Part shown: in pieces, positions 1-14,633 of the stretch
How the letters are laid out: each line of letters starts with the position of its first letter
How positions within the stretch are numbered: position 1 is the first letter of the stretch
IMG/VR virus record: IMGVR_UViG_3300032247_000728
Coordinates: 1 to 44,777 of that record
Direction: 5' to 3' (one strand)
DNA length: 44,777 bases
From: a virus
Taxonomy: Duplodnaviria > Caudoviricetes
The notes under the pieces: generated by a model
Databases searched by the model: none
Told to the model about the DNA's origin: nothing
What the model saw: the letters and a program-made list of their open reading frames with translations, nothing else
Program-made: the position numbers and the translations under genes

Positions 1-123
1 AAACGACGATGTCGCCTTCTTTCGTGACTTTTGCCCACAGCAGGAACCAGTTTCTGGCTCCAGCAGGGTCGCACGAAAAGAATATAGTACCTTCTTTCGG
101 GATGTTTTCGTTTTTGATGATGT
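1..123. repeat. Terminal direct repeat, copy 1 (assembly circularisation overlap)
   Basis: Base-for-base identical to 44655-44777; falls inside the terL coding sequence. Confidence 0.97.
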
Positions 124-1078
124 GTGCTTCGCTAAACATTGGGAATTGTGACCCGACGAGTGCTTGTGCCCATCCGTATGCTCTGATTTTCTTTTCATAG
201 TCTGTTTTTGATTCAAGTTGCTTGACCATTTGGTCAAAAGGTGAATATACATTAAATTTTGAGTGAAACCAAATCACTCCACCAGTTCTATTTCTGGCAT
301 TTGCTGTATATGGCATATGCCCCTTTGGGCACCCAGGTACATGGATAATATTTTGAGGAAGTATGTCGGCTTTTTTAGTTTTTGTGATAGCACATCCACT
401 AATATACTCTTTTACTACCTGCGAAAATCCATTGATTGGAGTAAATGTAACTAATAACTTACCTCTTCGTGTCAATATGCGATAACGCAAGGTTTGCACC
501 CAGTCAAGTGGTACTAATTCGTCGCACCAAATAAAATCTGGCTCTCCACCTTCAATAACTACCTTATCTTGTGAGTAGTTCATGAAAATACATTGACTTC
601 CATTAGGCAAAACAAAAGAATTGTTAGAAAACCCGTTTTTTAGAGAGTATTGTATGTTTGTTATTCTGCCTTTTTTTGTATTTTTAAGTTCTGCAGGGAT
701 ATATTTCCACAAAACATTCTGTTGCATCTGAATTGATGACATAGATGTTGTGTGAATGCACCAAACAATGGCTCCCGGCTTATTGACTAATGTAAATATT
801 GCTCGCTTGGCTGCATATTCTGTTTTACCTGCACGGTTTCCACCAAGAATTAGCAGTTCATCTTTATCTTTTAAAATTTCGTCAGCATCTTTCCAATGGA
901 ATGGCTCGTATCCGTGACGATACGGGTCTTCTTTTTCTGCTTTTATTTTATCTTCACGCAATTGAATCAATTCTGTAACCTGTTCGACACCTTTTTCTTT
1001 AATTAAATTACGTAATTGTTCTTCCGTTGGCTTTATCAACAACGGATGGTCGCTCATTTTTTGTAATATTTCGTTCAT
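1..1078 (-). CDS. terL: Terminase large subunit, N-terminal part (continues across the circular junction into 44654..44116; 538 aa in total)
   Basis: Not in the ORF track. My translation from ATG at 1078 gives MNEILQKMSDHP..., Walker A GGNRAGKT, Walker B FIWCDE and the coupling motif TFTP; 1078+539 nt = 539 codons in frame. Confidence 0.93.
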   Translation of the reverse strand, partial: MNEILQKMSDHPLLIKPTEEQLRNLIKEKGVEQVTELIQLREDKIKAEKEDPYRHGYEPFHWKDADEILKDKDELLILGGNRAGKTEYAAKRAIFTLVNKPGAIVWCIHTTSMSSIQMQQNVLWKYIPAELKNTKKGRITNIQYSLKNGFSNNSFVLPNGSQCIFMNYSQDKVVIEGGEPDFIWCDELVPLDWVQTLRYRILTRRGKLLVTFTPINGFSQVVKEYISGCAITKTKKADILPQNIIHVPGCPKGHMPYTANARNRTGGVIWFHSKFNVYSPFDQMVKQLESKTDYEKKIRAYGWAQALVGSQFPMFSEAHIIKNENIPKEGTIFFSCDPAGARNWFLLWAKVTKEGDIVV

Positions 1079-2150: not shown

Positions 2151-3227
2151 TTATATTGAAATGCTCCCATCTTCATTCATTATTACTCCTTCTTGAAATA
2201 ACTTTTTCATTCTTTCATCTGGTGAAGGACCAAGTTCACTTGGTAAATAAACATCAACTTGTCCGTCTTTTTCTTCCAGACGTCCTCCCATAAGAGCTCT
2301 TGAAGCCATTCCAATTTCTCCTGCAAAACCAGCAAGACCAAGAAGAAATCCACCAACATTAGGAAATTTTGGTGGTGTTCTTGGTGGAGTTCCTGGTGTA
2401 AATCTTTCTGCTGTTAAACCATGTTTTCTTGTTACTTTACCCCATTGGTCAAGTAAATCTATTGTTGTTTGTCTTCTTTGTTTCATTACATCTGGATCTG
2501 GAATAAAAAGTGACTGGTTTGAATCTACTCCATATATTCTTACAAATTTTTCTGGTGTCAGACCTTTTGCGTCAAGTGAATCTCCTAGGCCTGGATTTTC
2601 TTTAATATATCTCTTAAGGTTTGCTAAATAAATTGAATTTCGTTCATCTCCCCAATTTGCAATTGCACCCAATCTTTGTTGCCCTCCAAGCAGTTCTAAT
2701 CTAGATGCTAGTTGGTGTGCACTTGCATTTTCCATTCTAAACTCTTGAATTGCTTTTTGTCTTTCAATAAATGCATATGCTTCTTGAGACATTCTTGCTT
2801 TATGGTTTAAGTCTGAATCTGATGTTGCAGGAAATGATTGAGCGTCTGTGTAATGAAGTTGTCTAATTTGTTCTGGTGTCATGTCCCTATACAGTTCCAT
2901 CGCCCTTAACCATTGTTGATGCCTAAGTTCAGGTTCTTGGTCTGGTGATAAATTTATATATTTAGGAACTTGGCTTTTTCTAAAAAATTTCATCATTGTT
3001 GGGTCAACATTTGCTTCACCGCTTGATGAAAGTCCTCCATTATTTCCATTTGGTCCCCAATGAATATATCTTTTTGGTGCACCAGATAATGTATCTAGTT
3101 CAATATCAAATGATGGTGGGTGCAACAGCCCCATTTTATCTTGCTGTGGAGCAAAATGTTTAGCGGTGTTAATACCGGATTGTTCAAATCCGATTAACTG
3201 CATTTCTGGGTCGTCAAATAATCCCAT
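2151..3227 (-). CDS. Hypothetical protein, paralog of 1078..2148
   Basis: Long ORF with likely ATG at 3227 (MGLFDD); shares RQKAI, WG...GLTA.F.P and FLLGL.G.AGE.GMA.R.L.GG blocks with its neighbour. Confidence 0.8.
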   Translation of the reverse strand: MGLFDDPEMQLIGFEQSGINTAKHFAPQQDKMGLLHPPSFDIELDTLSGAPKRYIHWGPNGNNGGLSSSGEANVDPTMMKFFRKSQVPKYINLSPDQEPELRHQQWLRAMELYRDMTPEQIRQLHYTDAQSFPATSDSDLNHKARMSQEAYAFIERQKAIQEFRMENASAHQLASRLELLGGQQRLGAIANWGDERNSIYLANLKRYIKENPGLGDSLDAKGLTPEKFVRIYGVDSNQSLFIPDPDVMKQRRQTTIDLLDQWGKVTRKHGLTAERFTPGTPPRTPPKFPNVGGFLLGLAGFAGEIGMASRALMGGRLEEKDGQVDVYLPSELGPSPDERMKKLFQEGVIMNEDGSISI

Positions 3228-3229
3228 AA

Positions 3230-3337
3230 TTATAGCCAAGTACTGGAGTCGTCTCCATTAACATAATATTCGTCGCCCGTTTCATCATCTTCATCAACAG
3301 GGTAGTCGACGGAAATAAATTTCTTGGGGACGAACAT
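3230..3337 (-). CDS. Small acidic peptide, 35 aa (MFVPKKFISVDYPVDEDDETGDEYYVNGDDSSTWL)
   Basis: Translated by hand; fills the gap between flanking genes with 2-nt spacers on each side. Confidence 0.6.
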   Translation of the reverse strand: MFVPKKFISVDYPVDEDDETGDEYYVNGDDSSTWL

Positions 3338-3533: not shown

Positions 3534-3833
3534 CTAATGTCGATTGTCAACAATTTCCTTCGCTCCTCTTGCTGACATTTTCGCTGAAGATGTTAGCAAC
3601 GATTTGATTTTGACAGTTGAGGTGTCGTTCGAAAATACAAAAACAGCTCCTTTTTCTCCGGGAATCTTCAAATATAGCACCCCATCAATGCCATAATGCT
3701 TTACGACATCGGAAAAATGTAAAAATGCTGCCTCAACCTGCTCGCAAGTGTGTGCCCATTTAGCACTTTCAAGTTTTTTCTTACGCATGAATCTTTCCTC
3801 GTCCGTCAGTTTTAAAAATTGACACCCATCCAT
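3534..3833 (-). CDS. Hypothetical protein
   Basis: ORF track; true start is probably the ATG at 3788 (MRKKK), overlapping the end of the upstream gene. Confidence 0.6.
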   Translation of the reverse strand: MDGCQFLKLTDEERFMRKKKLESAKWAHTCEQVEAAFLHFSDVVKHYGIDGVLYLKIPGEKGAVFVFSNDTSTVKIKSLLTSSAKMSARGAKEIVDNRH

Positions 3834-4200
3834 CCTTTTTTAATACCACAGGGATTACAGAATTCTTTCTAAGGTTCGTAGAATCCTTAACTTTGACAAT
3901 TTGCAACGAATTCCAGCCCTCAATATTGCAAGCCACAATTCTTTTATTGACAAATTTCTGCTGAACCATCGCAGTTAACTTTTTTTCCTCAAATTCTTCT
4001 TGCTTTTTCAAATCTTTATACCCCATAAGGCGGTCATACCCTGACTTAGTCCACCAAACTGCCTTACGACCGGCTTTAGACTCAACTAAAACCCAATCCT
4101 CGTTTTCTTTGAAGTCTCCAGATGCTCGCATTTTAATTAATCTCGCTTTGGTGTACACATCATCAGCAGAAATTAAGTCATTTTCTTTTATAAAACTCAT
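3781..4200 (-). CDS. Hypothetical protein, first gene of the late operon
   Basis: ORF 3781..4296; ATG at 4200 (MSFIKEN) preferred because the GTG at 4296 lies inside the origin-like repeat. Confidence 0.65.
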   Translation of the reverse strand: MSFIKENDLISADDVYTKARLIKMRASGDFKENEDWVLVESKAGRKAVWWTKSGYDRLMGYKDLKKQEEFEEKKLTAMVQQKFVNKRIVACNIEGWNSLQIVKVKDSTNLRKNSVIPVVLKKDGWVSIFKTDGRGKIHA

Positions 4201-4274
4201 AGATGTACACCATACACAACTGCCACGCTCAGTCAATAAGAATATACCCCCATCAGAAATCTGTTGCCACCCTT

Positions 4275-4375
4275 TACTATAACCTATTATTATCACCTAT
4301 TACTATATGTGCCAGAAAACTGGCGGGGGGGGCGCCAGAAAACTGGCGGGGTACCCTCTAAAAACTAGCGGGGGT
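4275..4375 (-). promoter_or_regulatory. Inverted second copy of the iteron plus AT-rich origin-like cassette
   Basis: GCCAGAAAACTGGCG at 4311, CGCCAGAAAACTGGCG at 4333, a degenerate copy at about 4355-4370; the adjacent AT-rich tract, reverse-complemented, resembles 12831-12856. Confidence 0.75.
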
Positions 4376-4532
4376 ATGTCCTTTTTGTAAAAAAATTTTC
4401 CATGTGTGAATCCACCCGATCCTGGACCGGGAATCGTTAGTCGTTCCCCCCCCACCCCCCTGCTTTTCTGTTACGATCACGTTACAGGAGTGTTACAATG
4501 AGCTTTTTTACACTTCTTTTACAATTTTAGGG

Positions 4533-4560
4533 TTGAGAAAAGGCAAAGGTCTGATTTACT
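4533..4560 (+). promoter_or_regulatory. Putative sigma70-type early promoter
   Basis: TTGAGA-16-TTTACT with TG extension and a T-rich upstream tract; shares GGTCTGA with the 8333-8360 promoter. Confidence 0.45.
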
Positions 4561-4703
4561 TATAAACATAGGGTTTGACCCCTGCTCTTTGAAGTCTAAT
4601 AAATCTCACGACCTTCCCCTCTAACCTAACCAATGGGGAAACCAGTGAAAAGTCAGCCAACGCTGATTTAGACCGAAAAAGTAAGATCCAACCCTATATC
4701 CGT

Positions 4704-5036
4704 ATGACCGATAAAGAAAAGAAAGCCCAAGCCCTCGCAGACCTGCTCGCCCAAGCGTCTGCCCTCGTAATCCCCGAAGTCAACCAAACCGCAATCCAAG
4801 CAGTCGAGCCAGTCCTCGACTTGGGTGGTGCTGTTGCCTTCCCTCTGTGCGTAAAGAAGAATTGTGGCACAGTCGGTTACGCAATTGTGTCAGTCGCTGA
4901 CTTTCGCTCGAAAGTCCAGTCCGCTGGCATTATTGTGTGGGTCGGTGACAAGACTCGTGAGCAAGTCGAGGCGGAAGTCGAGAAGTACGGGGCAGTCGTA
5001 CCTGCCTCTGATACTCGAACCGCCAAGCAAGAGTAA
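4704..5036 (+). CDS. Hypothetical protein, isolated high-GC gene
   Basis: 110-aa ORF with its own putative promoter and downstream hairpin; codon usage differs from neighbours. Confidence 0.75.
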   Translation: MTDKEKKAQALADLLAQASALVIPEVNQTAIQAVEPVLDLGGAVAFPLCVKKNCGTVGYAIVSVADFRSKVQSAGIIVWVGDKTREQVEAEVEKYGAVVPASDTRTAKQE

Positions 5037-5053
5037 GTAACCAGTCAGTCGCC

Positions 5054-5085
5054 AAGCCACTCTCCGAGGAATCGGGGGGTGGCTT
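5054..5085 (+). terminator. Stem-loop, probable terminator
   Basis: AAGCCACTCTCCGA-GGAA-TCGGGGGGTGGCTT; G-U pairs work on the + strand; U tail is weak. Confidence 0.6.
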
Positions 5086-5095
5086 CTTGCGTCCG

Positions 5096-5125
5096 TGATA
5101 GTGACCAACTTGTTGGTCACTATCA
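5096..5125. repeat. Perfect 14-bp inverted repeat
   Basis: TGATAGTGACCAAC-TT-GTTGGTCACTATCA. Confidence 0.9.
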
Positions 5126-5409
5126 TTCCTTTCTTTATGCGTTTGCTCGAAATGGGGTCAATCGCAGACTAATCGCACTAAAAGCCCCGGAAGTAATCGC
5201 AGATTGCTACCAATTCACAGCATACACACATACCCCACACCCAACGAGGATGCTCTTTTTAATCGTTTCCTCGTTTCCTGTGTTTGATCTCATTTCACGT
5301 TTCCTCAATAAATACGCATACATTGTAAACCTGGATCGCAAGGATTCCGGAACTACACCTTTTGCATTATTACTTTTTTAATTTGATTCCTTACGGAATG
5401 AGTATGCAC

Positions 5410-5446
5410 AAAAAAAACCCCCACAAGTTATGCACCTGTGGGAGTT
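5410..5446 (-). terminator. Rho-independent terminator after the glutamine amidotransferase gene
   Basis: Minus strand AACTCCCACA...TGTGGGGGTT, ending in a run of 8 T. Confidence 0.8.
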
Positions 5447-5475
5447 GTATAGTTAGCTCGTTATGCGAGTTTACA

Positions 5476-6564
5476 TCAGTATGGATTTACTCCTTTATCC
5501 TTGTACGGACGCACTTTCTTCTTTGCGTTGCGTTTGTAGTTTTCTGCCATTTCACGTTTGTGAGTTTCGTATGCTATGGATTCAGCGGAGGGAACAGACA
5601 ATGGGAGTTGACCCTGTTTAGGAGTTTCCTGTGCCTTGCTCGCTTCCTTCGAATAGTAGTCATAATCGTAATCGTCCCAAGCTCGTGACTGGTACTTTTC
5701 TGTGTATCCTGTCGCACCTGCTGATCCGAGACTTCCATACACAGATGCTTGGCTTATATACGGAGATGTCGCAGAAAACTCTGGGAAGATGGTTGATGTG
5801 ATTTCACCATTGTGGAGGAATGTATGCATACACCATTCTTCGAGCATAAGAGGTTCGGTGTATACGGCATTTTTCAAGTTATAGAAGCCATTTATCAAGT
5901 CTGCGAGTTTCGAACAATGTGTCGAATCTGTGCATACGATGAATGTTCCTAATGCTTTGATATATGTGATATACAAGGGTGCTTTGTTGTCTCGCAATAC
6001 GAACAATTCTCGGTTCGGGTTGAAACCTACGATTGCTGCGTATCCACTTATATTGTCTTTGAATGATTGCTCGCCATTCAAGTACATAAAGCAATTAAGC
6101 AAATGCTCGGAATCGCAGGTTGTTTGTAATGGGAGATTTTCACCTTTCCAAGCGACAACACCATTGTGTGCAATCCACCATTCTTTGTCATCTATGTTTC
6201 CTCGGAATGGGTGAGTGTTAGCAATAACTTTGTCACAAGTTGCGGTGCGTCCGTGAGCAATAAATGAACCTTTTATTGAACCTTTGCTCGGAAACTCGCC
6301 ATAAGAGTCAAAGTCGACTCCTTGCTTAATTTTGGTTTTAAGCATACTCGGAAGTAGCTCACGAGATGCTTTCATCGTTCCCATACCTTTGACAGAATCG
6401 GGAGATAAAAAGCGTTCGGAGTAAACTCCGCCTTGGTGATTTAGAGCATACCCGAAACCATCTTTTTGAGAGAGTCCGAGTAACTCTGCGGATTTAGCGA
6501 CAAGTTGCGATGCTTGTGCGGTATTTTTAAGAGTTAAACCTGTAATAGCAATTAACTTACACAT
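5476..6564 (-). CDS. Class II (Ntn) glutamine amidotransferase
   Basis: N-terminal MC nucleophile; DGFG, HGRTAT, NTHPF, AHNGVV and CDSE motifs. Confidence 0.92.
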   Translation of the reverse strand: MCKLIAITGLTLKNTAQASQLVAKSAELLGLSQKDGFGYALNHQGGVYSERFLSPDSVKGMGTMKASRELLPSMLKTKIKQGVDFDSYGEFPSKGSIKGSFIAHGRTATCDKVIANTHPFRGNIDDKEWWIAHNGVVAWKGENLPLQTTCDSEHLLNCFMYLNGEQSFKDNISGYAAIVGFNPNRELFVLRDNKAPLYITYIKALGTFIVCTDSTHCSKLADLINGFYNLKNAVYTEPLMLEEWCMHTFLHNGEITSTIFPEFSATSPYISQASVYGSLGSAGATGYTEKYQSRAWDDYDYDYYSKEASKAQETPKQGQLPLSVPSAESIAYETHKREMAENYKRNAKKKVRPYKDKGVNPY

Positions 6565-6603
6565 AATGTTTTAGTAGATAAGAAGTTTATAAGGAAGATT
6601 GTA

Positions 6604-6630
6604 GCACGAGCGGTGTTGATCCGCTCGTGC
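6604..6630. other. Intergenic hairpin between amidoligase and amidotransferase
   Basis: GCACGAGCGG-TGTTGAT-CCGCTCGTGC, perfect 10-bp stem with no U tail. Confidence 0.75.
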
Positions 6631-6639
6631 CACGAGTAA

Positions 6640-8208
6640 TTATTCAACCCCTCCATCTATACCATTTAACAGATACTCCCACTTGGAGATTCCTATGATG
6701 TCACCTTTTCCGTTGACTTCATAGGATTTATGGAACTTACGGATACGTCCGAAAATCCAAACCTTGATATACGAAGGACAATCCGATTGCATAAAATCAT
6801 CGAAAGTCTCGATGCTTGCACCCGGAGAAGCCATATATTGCAAGAACTCTGTCCATAACTTCAACTTGTAGAAGTTGAGCGTTGCCATACCTACTCGTAC
6901 TTCTATCGTTCCGAAGCGACGGAAGGGAAGAGTGTTTACAGCGGTATACTTGTTATTGGTGTGTTCACGGAATACTCCGCAATACTGATTATAAGCACGA
7001 TTGTGATGCAAGGTTCGGTGTGCCCAGTCTTTTAGAGCATTACGAATCTTACCAGCAATACGAGATGCCTGTTGTTGAGTCTTTCCACGCATATCTATGT
7101 GAACGTGATTTCCACAAGAACTATTAACACGAGCACCCGCATCAGTCATATATTTCAGACAATCCTGCAAATCCTTCCAATCGGAAGGACTATTAGGATT
7201 CATAAAATAGTTTAACTCTTGATAACGTGCTAAACTCTCAGAATCGTTTTGTGCGTTTATCGAGCCGTCTCCTTTGAATGTTAAGAATCGGGCAGAAGGA
7301 AACTCGTCCTCGTCCCAATTCGTAATTTTCGAAGATTTCTCGGCAATAAACTCTAGCTCGATTCCGAGACAACTACCAGACGGACGAAACTTATTTGCTA
7401 TGGCAACTTCTGTTGGAGTGAAGTTAGCAAACCAGTTAAGAGGAGAAACACCCGAAACACTTACTTTCTCTAATGCTACGTTTACACGCTCTTTGAGTGT
7501 AAGAGTATTGGGGTTGTTCTGCATAATCTCCAATCGGGACGCTTCTCGTCGAGACTTAATTACGTGTAAACACGTGATCGCACATAACACAGATTCCGAG
7601 TAGAAGTCGTTTAAGCGATAAATCGCAGAAGTGTCCTTAAACTTCAAAACACGTGTTACTTCGCTTTCACTCATTAAGTGCCAGCGAGAGAAGTTAATTT
7701 CCTTTAATACTTCGACTTCTTGTGAATCAAAGTCTTTCGACTTTACTTGGCTTACATCGTTAAAAAGTTTAACGACAAAGTGGAAGTAAGAAGGAGACGA
7801 GTGATGCAAGTATTCGAGATTCAATGCAATCCAAGTTAACAGAGACATACTACCATCGGTAGTTTTGTGGTTTAACTTGGATCGGGAGTATACACGTAAG
7901 TTAGAGCATACTTCGAGTGCTTTCAAGCGGTGTATAAACTCGCGAACAGACAAACCTCGTTGAGTGCGGTGTGTGTTGTATGCTCGTGAACCTTGTAAGG
8001 CACAATTAAGGAGTTTGATATTCTTTCGAGTTTCTTCTGGTAAAGAATTAAACCAAGAAACACGAGTTTCGATGTCAGCCCCTCGCAAGCCGAAATATAT
8101 GTTTGCCTCCGATACAAACGTTAATTGTTTACGAGCAATCTTCTCACTCGTAGACAAGAGCAAAGCGTTAGCAAGCTCACCAGTTAATAATAGTAGTTTT
8201 TTATTCAT
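6640..8208 (-). CDS. Putative amidoligase (COOH-NH2 ligase, Amidoligase_2-like) with long N-terminal extension
   Basis: GIELEF, DGS, SCGNHVHID, KYTAVN and TIEVR motifs in the C-terminal half; adjacent to a class II amidotransferase as expected for this family. Confidence 0.88.
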   Translation of the reverse strand: MNKKLLLLTGELANALLLSTSEKIARKQLTFVSEANIYFGLRGADIETRVSWFNSLPEETRKNIKLLNCALQGSRAYNTHRTQRGLSVREFIHRLKALEVCSNLRVYSRSKLNHKTTDGSMSLLTWIALNLEYLHHSSPSYFHFVVKLFNDVSQVKSKDFDSQEVEVLKEINFSRWHLMSESEVTRVLKFKDTSAIYRLNDFYSESVLCAITCLHVIKSRREASRLEIMQNNPNTLTLKERVNVALEKVSVSGVSPLNWFANFTPTEVAIANKFRPSGSCLGIELEFIAEKSSKITNWDEDEFPSARFLTFKGDGSINAQNDSESLARYQELNYFMNPNSPSDWKDLQDCLKYMTDAGARVNSSCGNHVHIDMRGKTQQQASRIAGKIRNALKDWAHRTLHHNRAYNQYCGVFREHTNNKYTAVNTLPFRRFGTIEVRVGMATLNFYKLKLWTEFLQYMASPGASIETFDDFMQSDCPSYIKVWIFGRIRKFHKSYEVNGKGDIIGISKWEYLLNGIDGGVE

Positions 8209-8332
8209 ACTTGTGTTGTTAGTTTAGGTATTACTCACTCGTTTTGCAGTTTGCATAGCATACTCGCCTGGCAAGTTTCCTTGCTTGGATCGTACGCTTT
8301 CAATGTGTGCATTACTTGCTTTCACGAGAAGG

Positions 8333-8360
8333 ACTATATCAGACCACAGAAAAGATACAA
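8333..8360 (-). promoter_or_regulatory. Putative sigma70 promoter for the amidoligase operon
   Basis: TTGTAT-16-TATAGT with extended -10 (TGa). Confidence 0.6.
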
Positions 8361-8428
8361 TACTAATCTTTACGAGTTTCAACGCATACTCGTAAACTTT
8401 TTTATTATTTTTGCTTCCGGTTGTAGGT

Positions 8429-8564
8429 AAACCTGGATTGCAAGTTTGCTTGTATTAAAAGGAAACCTGGATCGTAAGCATACTTGTGTTAATAGGAAAC
8501 CTGGATCGGTAGTTTGCTTGTGTTACAATGAAACCTGGATCGGTAGTTTAATCGTGGCACAAGT
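8429..8564 (+). repeat. Tandem array of four 34-bp units with core AAACCTGGATYG
   Basis: Units start at 8429, 8463, 8497 and 8531. Confidence 0.9.
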
Positions 8565-8713
8565 AATCTTACAACGTAAGATTCTGGCAGCTCCCGGCAA
8601 AACTAACAATCCGAGAACCTGGTGAAAAAACAAAAAGCTCCGCCGGTTTTTTATCTACTATCATGCATTTCACTATCATTGCATTTCATTTTTGTTTGTC
8701 TTTCAATTGATTT

Positions 8714-9025
8714 TTATTTGCTGTGTTTTACGAATGGTGCAATATTTGCATCAAGATGTTGATATTGGAATGGGCGTTCCTCGGCAACTACAACTGTGTC
8801 GTAATTGTTGTTATCGTCATCATAAAACTTACAATCATATACTTTTTTTGAATATGATTTAACATTTTCAAGAATTTCTGGCATATTGATTTCGTAATAT
8901 AAGTCTGAGCAGTCTTTGTCAGCAAACATATAGATTGGATGACAAGACAAAGCAGACATATGGCATTTTGTTGGGTCAGACTTGTCTTTAGCAAGTTTGT
9001 ATATTGTTAGGTAGTTGATTTTCAT
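8714..9025 (-). CDS. Hypothetical protein
   Basis: 103-aa ORF with ATGA overlap to the upstream gene. Confidence 0.7.
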   Translation of the reverse strand: MKINYLTIYKLAKDKSDPTKCHMSALSCHPIYMFADKDCSDLYYEINMPEILENVKSYSKKVYDCKFYDDDNNNYDTVVVAEERPFQYQHLDANIAPFVKHSK

Positions 9026-10294: not shown

Positions 10295-10751
10295 TTTTGT
10301 TGTTTTTATTGGTTTTATTGGTGTTTTTTGCTGATTTTGTAACTATAACAGTTTCTTCGTATAAGTCAATACCTTTTTGTGATAAAATTTCTTTAATTCG
10401 TTTTTGGTGAACTTTTTCAATTTCTTCAGTTAAAATATTATTTTCGCGTAGCATTTGGCATCCCTGCTCAAATAACTCAGCGAACTGAATATAACTTTTT
10501 GAAAGCGAGAAAACGGTAAGTATTCCGTATTGTGGTAGGTTTGATGTTAGGTCACCAGAATGAATTAACTGAAGAATTCGCCAAGCGTCAACCTTATTTA
10601 TTGTTTTATTTGAAATTAGTGTAAGAAGTGAAATCGGGTCTTCTTCCGTTAATACTTCTGTATCAAAAACAATTTCCTCAAGTTGATTGTGAAGGTTTTT
10701 GTTATTGTTTTGGTTGTTTTGGTTATTGTTCATGTTATTGTTTTTGTTCAA
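10263..10751 (-). CDS. Hypothetical protein with Asn/Lys-rich low-complexity ends
   Basis: 162-aa ORF overlapping both neighbours. Confidence 0.7.
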   Translation of the reverse strand: MNKNNNMNNNQNNQNNNKNLHNQLEEIVFDTEVLTEEDPISLLTLISNKTINKVDAWRILQLIHSGDLTSNLPQYGILTVFSLSKSYIQFAELFEQGCQMLRENNILTEEIEKVHQKRIKEILSQKGIDLYEETVIVTKSAKNTNKTNKNNKNGKPKNKKNN

Positions 10752-11196
10752 TATCTATAGTTATATCATTTTCTTTTTTTTCGTCAAGAGAAAAATGTTT
10801 ATTTAATTCATCCTGTGTAATTGTTAGTCTTGTTGAAACAGTAACAGTAGGAACATCCTGCATGTCCCTAACCTTGTCTATTGCTATTGCTATGCTCATA
10901 GGTATTTGACCAATAGGCATATTATCAATTTCCTCGTTTAAACGTAAAGCTCCTTTTCTAACAAAATTAGCAAGCAGAGTAGAAACTTCTTTTTTCCATG
11001 ATCCTAATTCGAGCTTTCCTTCTTGTTCCATGTTTTGTCTAATTGCAACTACAGTTTCTTTTCTTACTTTGCATAATTTAGCAGTTTCCTGGCATGACTT
11101 ACCATCTATGATTAAGTTCTCGATGATGTCTTTCTTAACTGCTGGAAGACTTTTAAGTGGATTGTTTAGACTTTCATTATTTGCTTGATATTCCAT
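10735..11196 (-). CDS. Helix-turn-helix protein, candidate terminase small subunit
   Basis: GKSCQETAKLCKVRKETV HTH followed by a helical region and AIAIDK...PT; ATG at 11196 preferred. Confidence 0.55.
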   Translation of the reverse strand: MEYQANNESLNNPLKSLPAVKKDIIENLIIDGKSCQETAKLCKVRKETVVAIRQNMEQEGKLELGSWKKEVSTLLANFVRKGALRLNEEIDNMPIGQIPMSIAIAIDKVRDMQDVPTVTVSTRLTITQDELNKHFSLDEKKENDITIDIEQKQ

Positions 11197-11212
11197 AAAT
11201 TTAGTATTTAAT

Positions 11213-11650
11213 ATGAATATGAATGTAATAATGCTAAATGTCAATATAATTCCAACAAAAACTACACACCAGTCAGCTTTACGTATTTTAAAAGGAAAAA
11301 GTGGTAAAATGTTTGTTGGTAAATACCAGAAAACTGAGTTTCGTGCTTGGATCGAGGAATTTAAACTTAAGATTAGATCAAGTAAACCATTTGCTCCATT
11401 AGAAGGACCAATTGACGTAGAAATAGAATTTTACTTTCCATATAATAAGTCAGCATCAGAGAAACTACGTAAAACAGAGTCTTGGAAGATTACTCGCCCG
11501 GATTTAGATAATATGGAGAAAACTATATTTGATTGTTTAACATCAGAAGGGTTTATTCAAGATGATTCACTTATATGCAAGAAATTGAGCATAAAGAAAT
11601 ACTCTGAAAAGCCAAGAATTTTTATTAAAATATCTAAAATTACTGGTTGA
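11213..11650 (+). CDS. rusA: RusA-family Holliday junction resolvase
   Basis: RPDLDNMEKTIFDCL...IQDD catalytic motif. Confidence 0.92.
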   Translation: MNMNVIMLNVNIIPTKTTHQSALRILKGKSGKMFVGKYQKTEFRAWIEEFKLKIRSSKPFAPLEGPIDVEIEFYFPYNKSASEKLRKTESWKITRPDLDNMEKTIFDCLTSEGFIQDDSLICKKLSIKKYSEKPRIFIKISKITG

Positions 11651-11674: not shown

Positions 11675-12481
11675 TTGCTTATTATGTACCCAACGAATAC
11701 AATACTAGAAAATATTAGCGATGAAGAATACTCAAAGATTGACGCTATAAACTATTCATCATTGAAGAAGTTTATGGTCAGTCCAAAGCACTATAAATAC
11801 TCAACAGAAGACCAAGCATTAGATACTAAAGAGGCATTTAATGTCGGTCGTGCAATTCACCACCTTGCATTAAAGAAAGAAACATTTTCTGATAACTGGG
11901 TTGTTTCCCCTGTTTGCGATAAACGCACAAAAGACGGAAAACAAATCTGGGAAGATTTTGTGAAGTCTTCTGCCGGGAAAAGTATTCTCCTTCCAGACGA
12001 ATTTGAAACTGTTACTAATTGTGGTGCTGCTTTGCTTAACAATGATTATTTTAAATACTTTTTTGGTAATGGAAAAGTATACACAGAGTGCGTGATCGTA
12101 ACAGAATACGCCGGTGTTAAGATTAAAGGTCGATTAGATGCTTTTAACGTAACTACTAATACAGTTATGGACATTAAATCATTTAATAAGCCACCAGAAG
12201 TAGACGAAGTTGTACGTGAAATATTTAATCGTCGATATAACTACCAAGCTTTTCTTTACAAAATTCTTGGTAAATCTGTAACACAAGACTTGCCAAAATT
12301 TGAGTGGTGTTTTATTGAGAAGAAAAGCCCTAATTCTATTGGTTGGTTTGAGTATTCTGACCGATTAGTTTCTGACCAGTCAGTTCAAAACATTGAAGAA
12401 GCATTATGTCGATTTGAGAACGCAAAGAAAAATGATATTTGGACTGGACTTCCTCACGAAAATACTCCATATGTATTGTAA
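11675..12481 (+). CDS. RecE/exonuclease VIII-like PD-(D/E)XK nuclease (DUF3799-like)
   Basis: SSLKK...SP, GRAIH, DKRTKDGK, KGRLD, DIKS and YNYQAFLY motifs. Confidence 0.88.
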   Translation: MLIMYPTNTILENISDEEYSKIDAINYSSLKKFMVSPKHYKYSTEDQALDTKEAFNVGRAIHHLALKKETFSDNWVVSPVCDKRTKDGKQIWEDFVKSSAGKSILLPDEFETVTNCGAALLNNDYFKYFFGNGKVYTECVIVTEYAGVKIKGRLDAFNVTTNTVMDIKSFNKPPEVDEVVREIFNRRYNYQAFLYKILGKSVTQDLPKFEWCFIEKKSPNSIGWFEYSDRLVSDQSVQNIEEALCRFENAKKNDIWTGLPHENTPYVL

Positions 12482-13140
12482 TGAGCAATAATCAATTTTC
12501 TGGTGTATTCATTCCTCGTGAAGTTTTATTAGACGAAGACATTTCTGCGTCTGGTAAAATCATATTCGCAATTATCCAGTCGTTAGACAACGACAAGGGT
12601 TGCTTTGCGTCTAATGAATACATCGGAAAAATGCTTGGTCTTTCTGATTCAGCAGTTCGTTGTTCAATAGCAGACCTTGAACGTAAAAAATATTTAATTC
12701 GCTCGATTGACGAAAATGGAAATCGAACGATTACTACTTGCACGACGGCTTCTCTTTGTGGAGATGACCGCCAGAAAACTGGCACCACCCCGCCAGAAAA
12801 CAAGCGTACCCCCCGCCAGAAAACTGGCGTATATAGTAATAAGGATAATAATAGTAATAATATACAGGGTTACTTATTACCACCAATTCCTCACGATGAT
12901 GAATTTGCAAACACTTGGGGTACTTGGGTTCAATATCGAAAAGAACGTAAAAAGCCATTGACAAATCAAACCGTTAAACTACAATTGGAATTTCTAACAA
13001 AACTAACAAAACATGACGCAACCGATTCAATCCTCAAATCTATTCAAAACGGATGGCTTGGGCTATTTGCTCCAGTCAGCAAAGGAAATCCCTATTCATC
13101 CAAAAAGTTACTCACCGAAGATGACCACGGGACTTTTTAA
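12481..13140 (+). CDS. Replication initiator (N-terminal winged HTH, lambda O-like organisation)
   Basis: CFASNEY HTH, central linker encoded by iterons, C-terminal WVQYRKE...SIQNGWLGLF; followed by a DnaC-like gene; ATG at 12481 overlaps the upstream TAA. Confidence 0.88.
   Translation: MSNNQFSGVFIPREVLLDEDISASGKIIFAIIQSLDNDKGCFASNEYIGKMLGLSDSAVRCSIADLERKKYLIRSIDENGNRTITTCTTASLCGDDRQKTGTTPPENKRTPRQKTGVYSNKDNNSNNIQGYLLPPIPHDDEFANTWGTWVQYRKERKKPLTNQTVKLQLEFLTKLTKHDATDSILKSIQNGWLGLFAPVSKGNPYSSKKLLTEDDHGTF
12769..12866 (+). promoter_or_regulatory. Probable replication origin inside the initiator gene
   Basis: CGCCAGAAAACTGGC at 12769, CGCCAGAAAACAAGCG at 12791, CGCCAGAAAACTGGCG at 12814 (spacing 22 and 23 bp), then an AT-rich tract. 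Confidence 0.8.
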
Positions 13141-13786
13141 GTGTGATTGTGGTGGTCTTCGCTACCCAATGACCGATGGTAAGAAAATCATCTGGAATGA
13201 CCTGTATTGCCCTGATTGTGAGAGCAAGTATGATGACCCACGATTCCGTGACTTAAAATGGGCTATAGAGGCAATTGGAGTACCTCCAGAGTATAAGGGT
13301 ACTATAATTGAAAAGATTCCTTGTCCCAAAATGCGTGATGTTGCTTCTAAATGGAGTAACTGGAAAACACGATCATTACTTTTACATGGAACAACTCGTC
13401 TTGGTAAGACACGAGCAGCTTGGGAGGTTTACAAGCGTTGGTGGACTACACATTACAAGAAGCAAACATATATTACAATGCGTCACTTTGAAAAGAACAT
13501 TGAGGAGGGTTTCGAGAACTTTGACCACAATAAGCGTGTGCAGTCTTTGATAAATGTTCCATTCCTTTTTATTGACGATCTTGGGAAAGAGAAGACAACG
13601 CAGCGTGTAGCGTGTGACTTGTTTGCCGTGATAGACGAGCGTACTATTAACCACCGTCCAACCATTATTACAACTAATCACAATTCTTCGAATCTGCTTG
13701 ACAAGTTTGAGGACAAAGAATTGGGTAACGCATTACTTGGTCGACTTACAGACTATTTCGACAAAGTTGGTGCAACATCAAAATAA
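13121..13786 (+). CDS. DnaC/IstB-like AAA+ ATPase (helicase loader)
   Basis: Walker A GTTRLGKT, Walker B FIDDLG, sensor TTN, N-terminal CxC...CxxC; ATG at 13121 preferred over 13013. Confidence 0.9.
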   Translation: MTTGLFKCDCGGLRYPMTDGKKIIWNDLYCPDCESKYDDPRFRDLKWAIEAIGVPPEYKGTIIEKIPCPKMRDVASKWSNWKTRSLLLHGTTRLGKTRAAWEVYKRWWTTHYKKQTYITMRHFEKNIEEGFENFDHNKRVQSLINVPFLFIDDLGKEKTTQRVACDLFAVIDERTINHRPTIITTNHNSSNLLDKFEDKELGNALLGRLTDYFDKVGATSK

Positions 13787-13799
13787 TTAAAAAAAACAC

Positions 13800-13827
13800 T
13801 TGACTATGAAATACATTCCATTAGAGT
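13800..13827 (+). promoter_or_regulatory. Putative sigma70 promoter upstream of erf
   Basis: TTGACT-16-TAGAGT with an A-rich upstream tract. Confidence 0.45.
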
Positions 13828-13850
13828 CCATAACTTCATCACCAATATAT

Positions 13851-14633
13851 ATGAACAACGATATCAATACAAATAACGATAATAGCTCCTATTATAAAAA
13901 TCGTGCATTACTGCACACAGCATTAGTTAAGGCAGTTGCCGAGACTCAAGATGTTGTAGCAGATAGCACAAATCCATTCCACAAAAATAAATATGCGTCA
14001 TTAAACGCACACCTGTCTGTGGTAAAACCAATCTTTGCTAAATACGGATTGGCTGTGATTCAATTCCCATCAAGCAATGATAAGTCAATTGGTGTAACCA
14101 CAACAATTATTCACGAGTGCGGTTCGCAACTTATGGATTCAATTCACATTCCTGTGTCTGATTCAATTACTGGTCAGCAAGCCGGGGCAATTATCTCTTA
14201 TTTACGTCGTTACGCATTAGCATCCGTTGCTGGTATTGCTACTGAAGATGATGATGCTGAGATTGATCGTGTAGCACGTAATCCACAATACTCTGCTAGT
14301 TCAAAGCCAAAGTCCGTCGAGACTCATACTCGTGTTAGCAATGATTTGCCGTTAGGCAGCGAATCATTGGGAACTGTAAACTTTGAACTAGTGGTTCCTT
14401 TCGGAGATGCAAAGGGAAGTAAACTAAATGAACTTCCATTAAAGAATGATGACCGCACTAAAAAGTGTGCAGATTTAAGTTATTGGGCTAAAGTTTGGGT
14501 TCCTAAACCATTTGGAACATCAACAAAAATTAGTAAACGAGACTTAGATTTCAAATCATCAGCAGAAGCATTATATGCAATTAAGAATGCTGAAGCACAA
14601 CCAACACAAACTGACGACGAAATTCCGTTCTAA
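13851..14633 (+). CDS. erf: ERF-family single-strand annealing protein
   Basis: NPFHKNKYASL and GAIISYLRRYAL...EDDDA; SSB-like acidic tail DDEIPF. Confidence 0.9.
   Translation: MNNDINTNNDNSSYYKNRALLHTALVKAVAETQDVVADSTNPFHKNKYASLNAHLSVVKPIFAKYGLAVIQFPSSNDKSIGVTTTIIHECGSQLMDSIHIPVSDSITGQQAGAIISYLRRYALASVAGIATEDDDAEIDRVARNPQYSASSKPKSVETHTRVSNDLPLGSESLGTVNFELVVPFGDAKGSKLNELPLKNDDRTKKCADLSYWAKVWVPKPFGTSTKISKRDLDFKSSAEALYAIKNAEAQPTQTDDEIPF

Follow-up and report, generated by a model that had tools for sequence, protein, structure and literature searches.

A second copy of the phage's own replication origin at the head of the terL operon, probably bound by its initiator, in a family of tailed phages

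Why does a phage with origin-like repeats inside its replication initiator gene carry a second, inverted copy of them in front of its terL operon? The question arises from a virus of the Caudoviricetes (IMG/VR record IMGVR_UViG_3300032247_000728), whose whole analysed stretch of 44,777 nucleotides, hereafter the window, is a complete circular phage of 44.7-kb with a 123-nt terminal overlap. A plus-strand block encodes, in order, a RusA Holliday-junction resolvase (11213..11650), an exonuclease VIII-like nuclease (11675..12481), the replication initiator Rep, an O-like/DnaD-like winged-helix protein (12481..13140; phrog_678, E 8e-19, and HTH_36), a DnaC-like helicase loader (13013..13786 as the longest ORF, the true start probably being later), and an Erf single-strand annealing protein (13800..14633). 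The long minus-strand operon, which runs in the direction of morphogenesis, begins at ATG 4200 with a gene for 139 aa (3781..4200) and continues through the terminase large subunit gene terL (start 1078; N-terminal part at 2..1078, continuing over the circular join) into scaffold and capsid genes, a gene content that points to a late operon. No phage-encoded helicase was detected in the gene annotation of the window, and an Rfam scan of 3800-9000 returned no match at gathering score (single match of 24 bits against a cut-off of 61). GC skew was rejected as an origin indicator, as it tracks gene direction and is uninformative on origins. A host search in GTDB gave five partial N-terminal matches only, and sequencing runs with small parts of the region are, where labelled, from freshwater or a lake.

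The first of the two sites, site A, lies inside rep on the plus strand, and comprises three iterons (12769..12829; at 12769, 12791, and 12814) followed by an AT tract (12830..12869). Stability was estimated with a nearest-neighbour proxy over 35-bp windows ranked within each genome, and only 0.01% of windows are less stable than this tract. Rep is predicted to fold into an N-terminal winged helix, a low-confidence linker, which is encoded by the origin iterons, and a helical C-terminal domain; Foldseek with the Rep model returned only weak winged-helix matches, none at E 0.001 or better. With iterons inside the gene of an O-like winged-helix initiator and a helicase loader gene after it, this phage has the arrangement of a lambdoid O-type module, and repeats with an AT tract inside the initiator gene are also found in SPP1. 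The recognition helix of Rep varies with half-site type across the family, and a Rep dimer presumably binds each palindrome.

The iteron is a 16-bp palindrome (CGCCAG, a 4-bp A/T core, and CTGGCG) with five matches of at most two mismatches in the window (0.25 expected; maximum of 2 in 100 shuffles), three in rep at the positions given above and two, at 4310 and 4333, in site B. As a whole, site B (4273-4370) is an inverted copy of site A (12769-12869), and no inverted repeat in the window is longer than the one they form (55 nt, 75%). When the origin segment of rep was compared with its own genome by blastn, site B was recovered at 77% over 69 nt (E 7e-9), while two other rep segments used as controls gave E 0.084. 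Iteron 1 (4310..4325) is palindromic with one mismatch to the consensus and adjoins an AT tract (4273..4309), purine-rich on the minus strand, which is the predicted unwinding element and is surpassed in instability by just 0.28% of the genome's 35-bp windows. Iteron 2 (4333..4348), 23 bp from iteron 1, is a perfect palindrome, iteron 3 (4355..4370) is degenerate, and beyond the AT tract, 59 bp away from iteron 1, there is a degenerate fourth iteron (4251..4266) that stays under the score cut-off in the window. An earlier note on this DNA had described three palindromes in rep and three again at site B, the third degenerate, and this was borne out (7/12 arm bases are kept in the third). Its reading of the orientations was also correct, in that the C-runs and AT tract are reversed at B and the A4 core, which reads identically on the plus strand, is not, as was its placing of the conservation at the DNA level, the rep-equivalent frame of B running into stops (TAT AGT AAT AGG TGA TAA). 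Site B is taken as non-coding because the overlapping 171-aa GTG ORF probably starts at ATG 4200, from which its homologue in relative G001 aligns.

Relatives were collected with an alignment of 47 Rep sequences, which led to 308 related stretches in the viral collection, and the best 80 of the 308 were used. TerL was looked for in fifty of these records and detected in 35. Forty-eight relatives were pieced together from their own stretches, with G012 and G049 omitted, and G019 (88-kb) is about half covered. Thirteen fragments without TerL are uncounted and G009 and G022 contain no relevant gap; the informative genomes number 34 including the window, or 38 with four more found via TerL (G051, G052, G055, and G056). 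Near-identical rows (G043/G045 and G044/G046) are within these counts. The automatic iteron picker mis-centred on G010, G026, G030, G038, G040, G041, G044, and G046; the rows for G023-G027 rest on inspection plus the own-iteron matrix, and those for G026 and G038 on blastn or inspection.

Site B is present in 17 of the 34 genomes, the window included, and blastn finds no second copy in the four TerL-found genomes. B is thus carried by 17 of 38 informative genomes and absent from the other 21, which weakens the earlier interpretation. Where present, B always occupies the same gap, which separates a conserved landmark from the first minus-strand gene, at a distance of 137-254 nt from that landmark. 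Ten of the carriers have CGCCAG-type iterons (clade I); the other seven, with GGAAAT/TTCC-type iterons and Reps 32-35% identical to that of the window, make up clade II. Three changes in B are needed on the TerL tree and two on a quick Rep tree (G009 and G022 scored as non-carriers), and either one gain with losses or two gains fit. B is an optional accessory: about half of the family does without it, and non-carriers retain the same recombination genes, with exonuclease, Erf, and resolvase present in the 17 mapped non-carriers and in the four TerL-found ones. A pattern scan for further A/B pairs found no new genome with both, and no DNA resembling B was found in cultured phages; Cruim01, with the closest cultured Rep (33%), has no second copy in 49.7 of its 55.7 kb.

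An association of B with RusA was considered and rejected, as RusA-bearing G013, G015, G021, and G048 lack B and, in the clade devoid of RusA, the slot holds what is by its motif a probable endonuclease VII-type gene. This slot, ~0.85-1.7 kb before rep, is presumably occupied by an endonuclease VII-like gene in G018, G019, G022, G023, and G025-G027, and likewise in G031, G032, G038, G039, G043, G045, and G050. Several B-less genomes have a cluster of 7-10 tRNA genes on the minus strand between terL and the landmark (L070 767-1483; L090 1498-2240; L059 1202-2384). The window has further features of its own. Two similar orphan genes on the minus strand (1078-2148 and 2151-3239; 356 and 362 aa) have a common 60-bp repeat and are inserted just before terL, with a detectable relative only in G001. 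The accessory arm between sites A and B includes genes for a glutamine amidotransferase and an amidoligase (5476-8208, minus strand), a pair retained across clade I. Upstream of the amidoligase gene, a non-coding gap holds four head-to-tail 34-bp units (8429-8564), possibly tandem promoters or a protein-binding array, whose 10-bp core is absent from all 48 relatives searched.

For each genome, a scoring matrix was made from its own rep iterons. With these matrices B is the top non-rep array in 16/17 carriers (scores 30-60; next best at most 17); the remaining carrier, G010, has a mis-centred matrix and its B was recovered by blastn. The own-matrix scan of TerL-bearing non-carriers gave nothing above 16. 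Cross-scoring is block-diagonal: clade-I matrices score 15-64 on clade-I B sites and at most 5 on clade-II B sites, and clade-II matrices score 11-52 on clade-II B sites and at most 13 on those of clade I. Co-variation of B with each genome's own rep iteron, proposed earlier as the decisive observation, is therefore found by blastn, own-matrix scanning, and cross-scoring alike, and the match holds over ~30% Rep identity. A second origin-type site, bound by the initiator, is the best reading of B on these sequence comparisons.

In 17/17 carriers the AT tract of B ranks among the 0.39% of windows with the lowest stability. The best window of the same gap reaches 0.28% in 17/17 carriers and 4/17 non-carriers, and the promoter gaps of non-carriers are AT-rich too (best windows 0.02-3.0%). 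Conserved in B are the three iterons at 22-23 bp, the exact iteron/AT junction, the purine strand bias, and the phasing. The direction of the 4-bp core differs from genome to genome, so the flipped core in the window carries no fixed meaning. Relative to A, B is inverted in 14/17 carriers and direct in 3/17 (G005, G006, and G007); the suggestion that the AT tract faces the late genes does not hold as a general feature, as the cassette is flipped in these three. At 58-62 bp, on the opposite side of the tract, a fourth iteron scores above cut-off in 5/10 clade-I B sites (clear in G001, G002, G005, G006, and G007, which include all three flipped sites) and in 0/10 clade-I genomes at site A. That the flipped copies all have the fourth iteron suggests a complex that is symmetric or indifferent to orientation. 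A Futcher-type inversion between the two sites was considered and set aside on reasoning, since the crossover would split rep and direct copies exist.

The earlier note regarded this arrangement as an undescribed system, which cannot be maintained because SPP1 has an equal layout. According to PMC6316719 and PMC3485210, SPP1 has oriL within gene 38 and an intergenic oriR ~13 kb off, both consisting of direct repeats with an AT unwinding element and both bound by gp38/G38P, and oriR is proposed or believed to be a fork block that triggers the switch to concatemers via G44P, G34.1P, and G35P. SPP1 replication is treated further in PMC5737612, PMC5615212, and PMC3561973. As a control, the same self-search with SPP1 gene 38 as query returned oriR (4878-4948, direct; 83% over 71 nt, E 1e-13). 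Both phages have an origin in the initiator gene and a non-coding second copy of the same organisation, intergenic and kilobases off on the late side (~13 kb in SPP1; 8.5 kb here); both encode an exonuclease, an annealing protein, and a RusA-family resolvase (here also in non-carriers), and both initiators match phrog_428, 345, and 186. They differ in that the oriR of SPP1, a direct copy, is found between genes 7 and 8 at 4.9 kb past pac, whereas B stands in front of the terL operon and is inverted in 14/17 carriers. The palindromic 16-bp iterons of this family, spaced 22-23 bp, have no sequence relation to the SPP1 repeats; the loader of the window resembles DnaC, and its annotation showed no phage helicase. 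The fourth iteron, the flips, and the junction tracking described below are seen here and are unmentioned in the passages on SPP1 that were consulted. By hhalign Rep and G38P have no direct profile match (0.14%), and they would fall into one broad winged-helix initiator class without being orthologues. B is like oriR in layout, then, but probably outside any SPP1-orthologous module.

Other comparisons are less close. In the SPP1 relatives Ray17 and SplendidRed (MH752385, MN013088), the oriL probe matches two places, the second probably being their own oriR; Bacillus phage Page also has two places that match the SPP1 probe, and no second copy of its own. In lambda, too, iterons (four, as annotated) and an AT tract lie within the O gene, whose product matches phrog_678 as Rep does, but lambda has no second copy (self-search best E 0.13), so the window, with its second copy, departs from the single origin of the lambdoid arrangement. 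In plasmid control arrays such as P1 incA, a second array of initiator sites could titrate the initiator or pair with the origin; such arrays serve copy control and are not known to have an unwinding tract, whereas B retains its AT tract. T7 phi-OR is a secondary origin near a packaging end, promoter-driven and not known to involve iterons or an O-type initiator, and B would be like it in lying at a genome end. In a literature search, with most subscription papers beyond reach, SPP1 was the sole iteron-type twin-origin phage found, and nothing was found on the second site of this family. The twin-origin layout is thus already known and B adds another case of it; further points added by this family are the flips in 3/17 carriers, the fourth iteron in 5/10 clade-I B sites, and a B junction that tracks the genome's own A.

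By analogy with SPP1, we consider it probable that B is bound by Rep and melted, and acts, like oriR, late in replication as an extra site of initiation or restart or as a fork barrier that aids the switch from circle to concatemer. A Rep dimer would bind each palindrome of B, and forks from A would reach the Rep-loaded B after ~36 kb, where B would either load helicase itself or stall the fork; a stalled fork would be restarted through recombination by the resolvase, the exonuclease, and Erf. Firing is assumed here to go through the AT-tract side, as in other such origins; a fork that leaves an inverted B by its AT tract would then travel in the direction of late transcription, and the 36-kb arc would be spared a head-on fork. 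Since non-carriers keep the exonuclease, Erf, and resolvase, B cannot be essential to the switch, and the variable orientation (14 inverted, 3 direct) disfavours a strictly polar trap or a strictly late-facing origin.

The surroundings of B bear on two alternatives. A sigma70-like promoter of the minus-strand terL operon (4209..4236; TTGACT, 16 nt, TATGGT) is predicted from its consensus match, and relatives have a similar -35. The predicted -10 lies 8 nt before ATG 4200 and leaves no space for a Shine-Dalgarno site, as also in G001, which suggests that an mRNA from this promoter would be leaderless. In every carrier B borders directly on the promoter: in the window the fourth iteron is ~15 bp from the -35, the clade II AT tract runs directly into TTGACA, and the first iteron of G006 is ~20 nt from the start codon. 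B could accordingly be a Rep operator or sink that represses or times the terL-operon promoter, or titrates Rep, without melting, and palindromic sites would function in either orientation. We consider this unlikely, as a plain operator would not need a phased, strand-biased, low-stability AT tract with a conserved junction, which favours an origin-type site; non-carriers have the same promoter without B, and the promoter spacing differs widely between inverted and direct carriers.

On its other side B is flanked by the landmark (4382..4460), a T-run/A-run, ~50 nt, and a C-run, which is family-wide with or without B, is present in all 34 informative genomes, and may be pac or a terminus. The distance of 137-254 nt in every carrier would suit a site that couples replication to packaging, with Rep opening or ending the DNA by pac or the terminus for terminase, or priming the copying of terminal repeats. 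In a related clade (L280, L282, and L283) the landmark lies inside the 3' end of the gene for an HTH protein, some members of which match terminase small subunit families weakly (7/52 match phrog_2538, best E 0.003). Such coupling is less probable still than an operator: the landmark is only a candidate pac, contig ends examined by eye at the inspected loci did not cluster on it, 17 genomes have it without B, and SPP1 oriR lies 4.9 kb from pac. The HTH protein (10735-11199, minus strand, in the window) has a tblastn match in 45/48 relatives, the contigs of the other three ending before it; in most of them its gene and the resolvase gene point away from each other, at a large distance from terL, and the protein is a candidate TerS displaced from pac.

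The relation between A and B within single genomes was examined at the junction, defined as the 20 nt that start at the last iteron arm and extend into the AT tract, by comparing own A/B pairs with permuted pairs. For clade I the own pairs score 179 against a permuted mean of 153 (0/20,000 permutations; p 3e-4 with sisters collapsed to 8), and for clade II p is 0.004 (0.033 collapsed to 5). This excess is not expected had A and B split once and then evolved separately, and it suggests sequence exchange between them; short-tract conversion, perhaps by Erf, or co-selection is possible. G004 and G010 have an altered tract start common to both sites, and they differ from each other by one synonymous iteron base in A and B alike, their Reps differing at 3 residues; the shared base points weakly to copying. 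G001 likewise has a TGTCTG half-site at both A and B. The genome's own A is best or tied for the B junction in only 6/10 (clade I) and 4/7 (clade II) carriers, and the window is an exception, its B junction being nearer to the A of G005 than to its own.

Such signs of copying, and the absence of B from more than half of the family, would also fit a non-functional origin duplicate whose similarity is maintained through occasional recombination. We regard this as very improbable: the position is fixed in two clades whose TerL proteins are ~60% apart; the iterons, their spacing, and the AT tract persist where cores and flanks have diverged; copying from A cannot account for the fourth iteron, which is found at B only; and G048, with a different iteron type, has no leftover array. 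That B is an assembly artefact is hardly credible, for although the sequence is metagenome-assembled and rich in G/C-runs, and the G046 contig ends within B, B is only 77% identical to A, recurs in 16 separately assembled relatives, and is covered by contig X1 (2500-8500, without difference, possibly the source) and contig X3 (2965-4864, ~88%).

Beyond the preferred reading of B as a melted Rep site resembling oriR, a bolder version can be offered only tentatively, in which Rep pairs A and B in one melted complex, Erf copies short tracts between them, and B, held by a fourth iteron and placed beside pac, breaks an arriving fork and so provides the first end for concatemers and packaging. If true, this would be a self-synchronising switch from replication to packaging that goes beyond the SPP1 model, with a spare origin updated when the coding origin drifts. 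The role of SPP1 oriR is itself worded as a proposal in PMC6316719 and PMC3485210. The present family is a natural comparison, with 17 genomes that have B and 21 that do not, both orientations, several iteron codes, and fine-scale tracking between A and B. If B is a meltable Rep site, the family would extend the twin-origin design to a different initiator and iteron type, and would supply synthesizable pairs of Rep and site for tests of binding, melting, and fork block.
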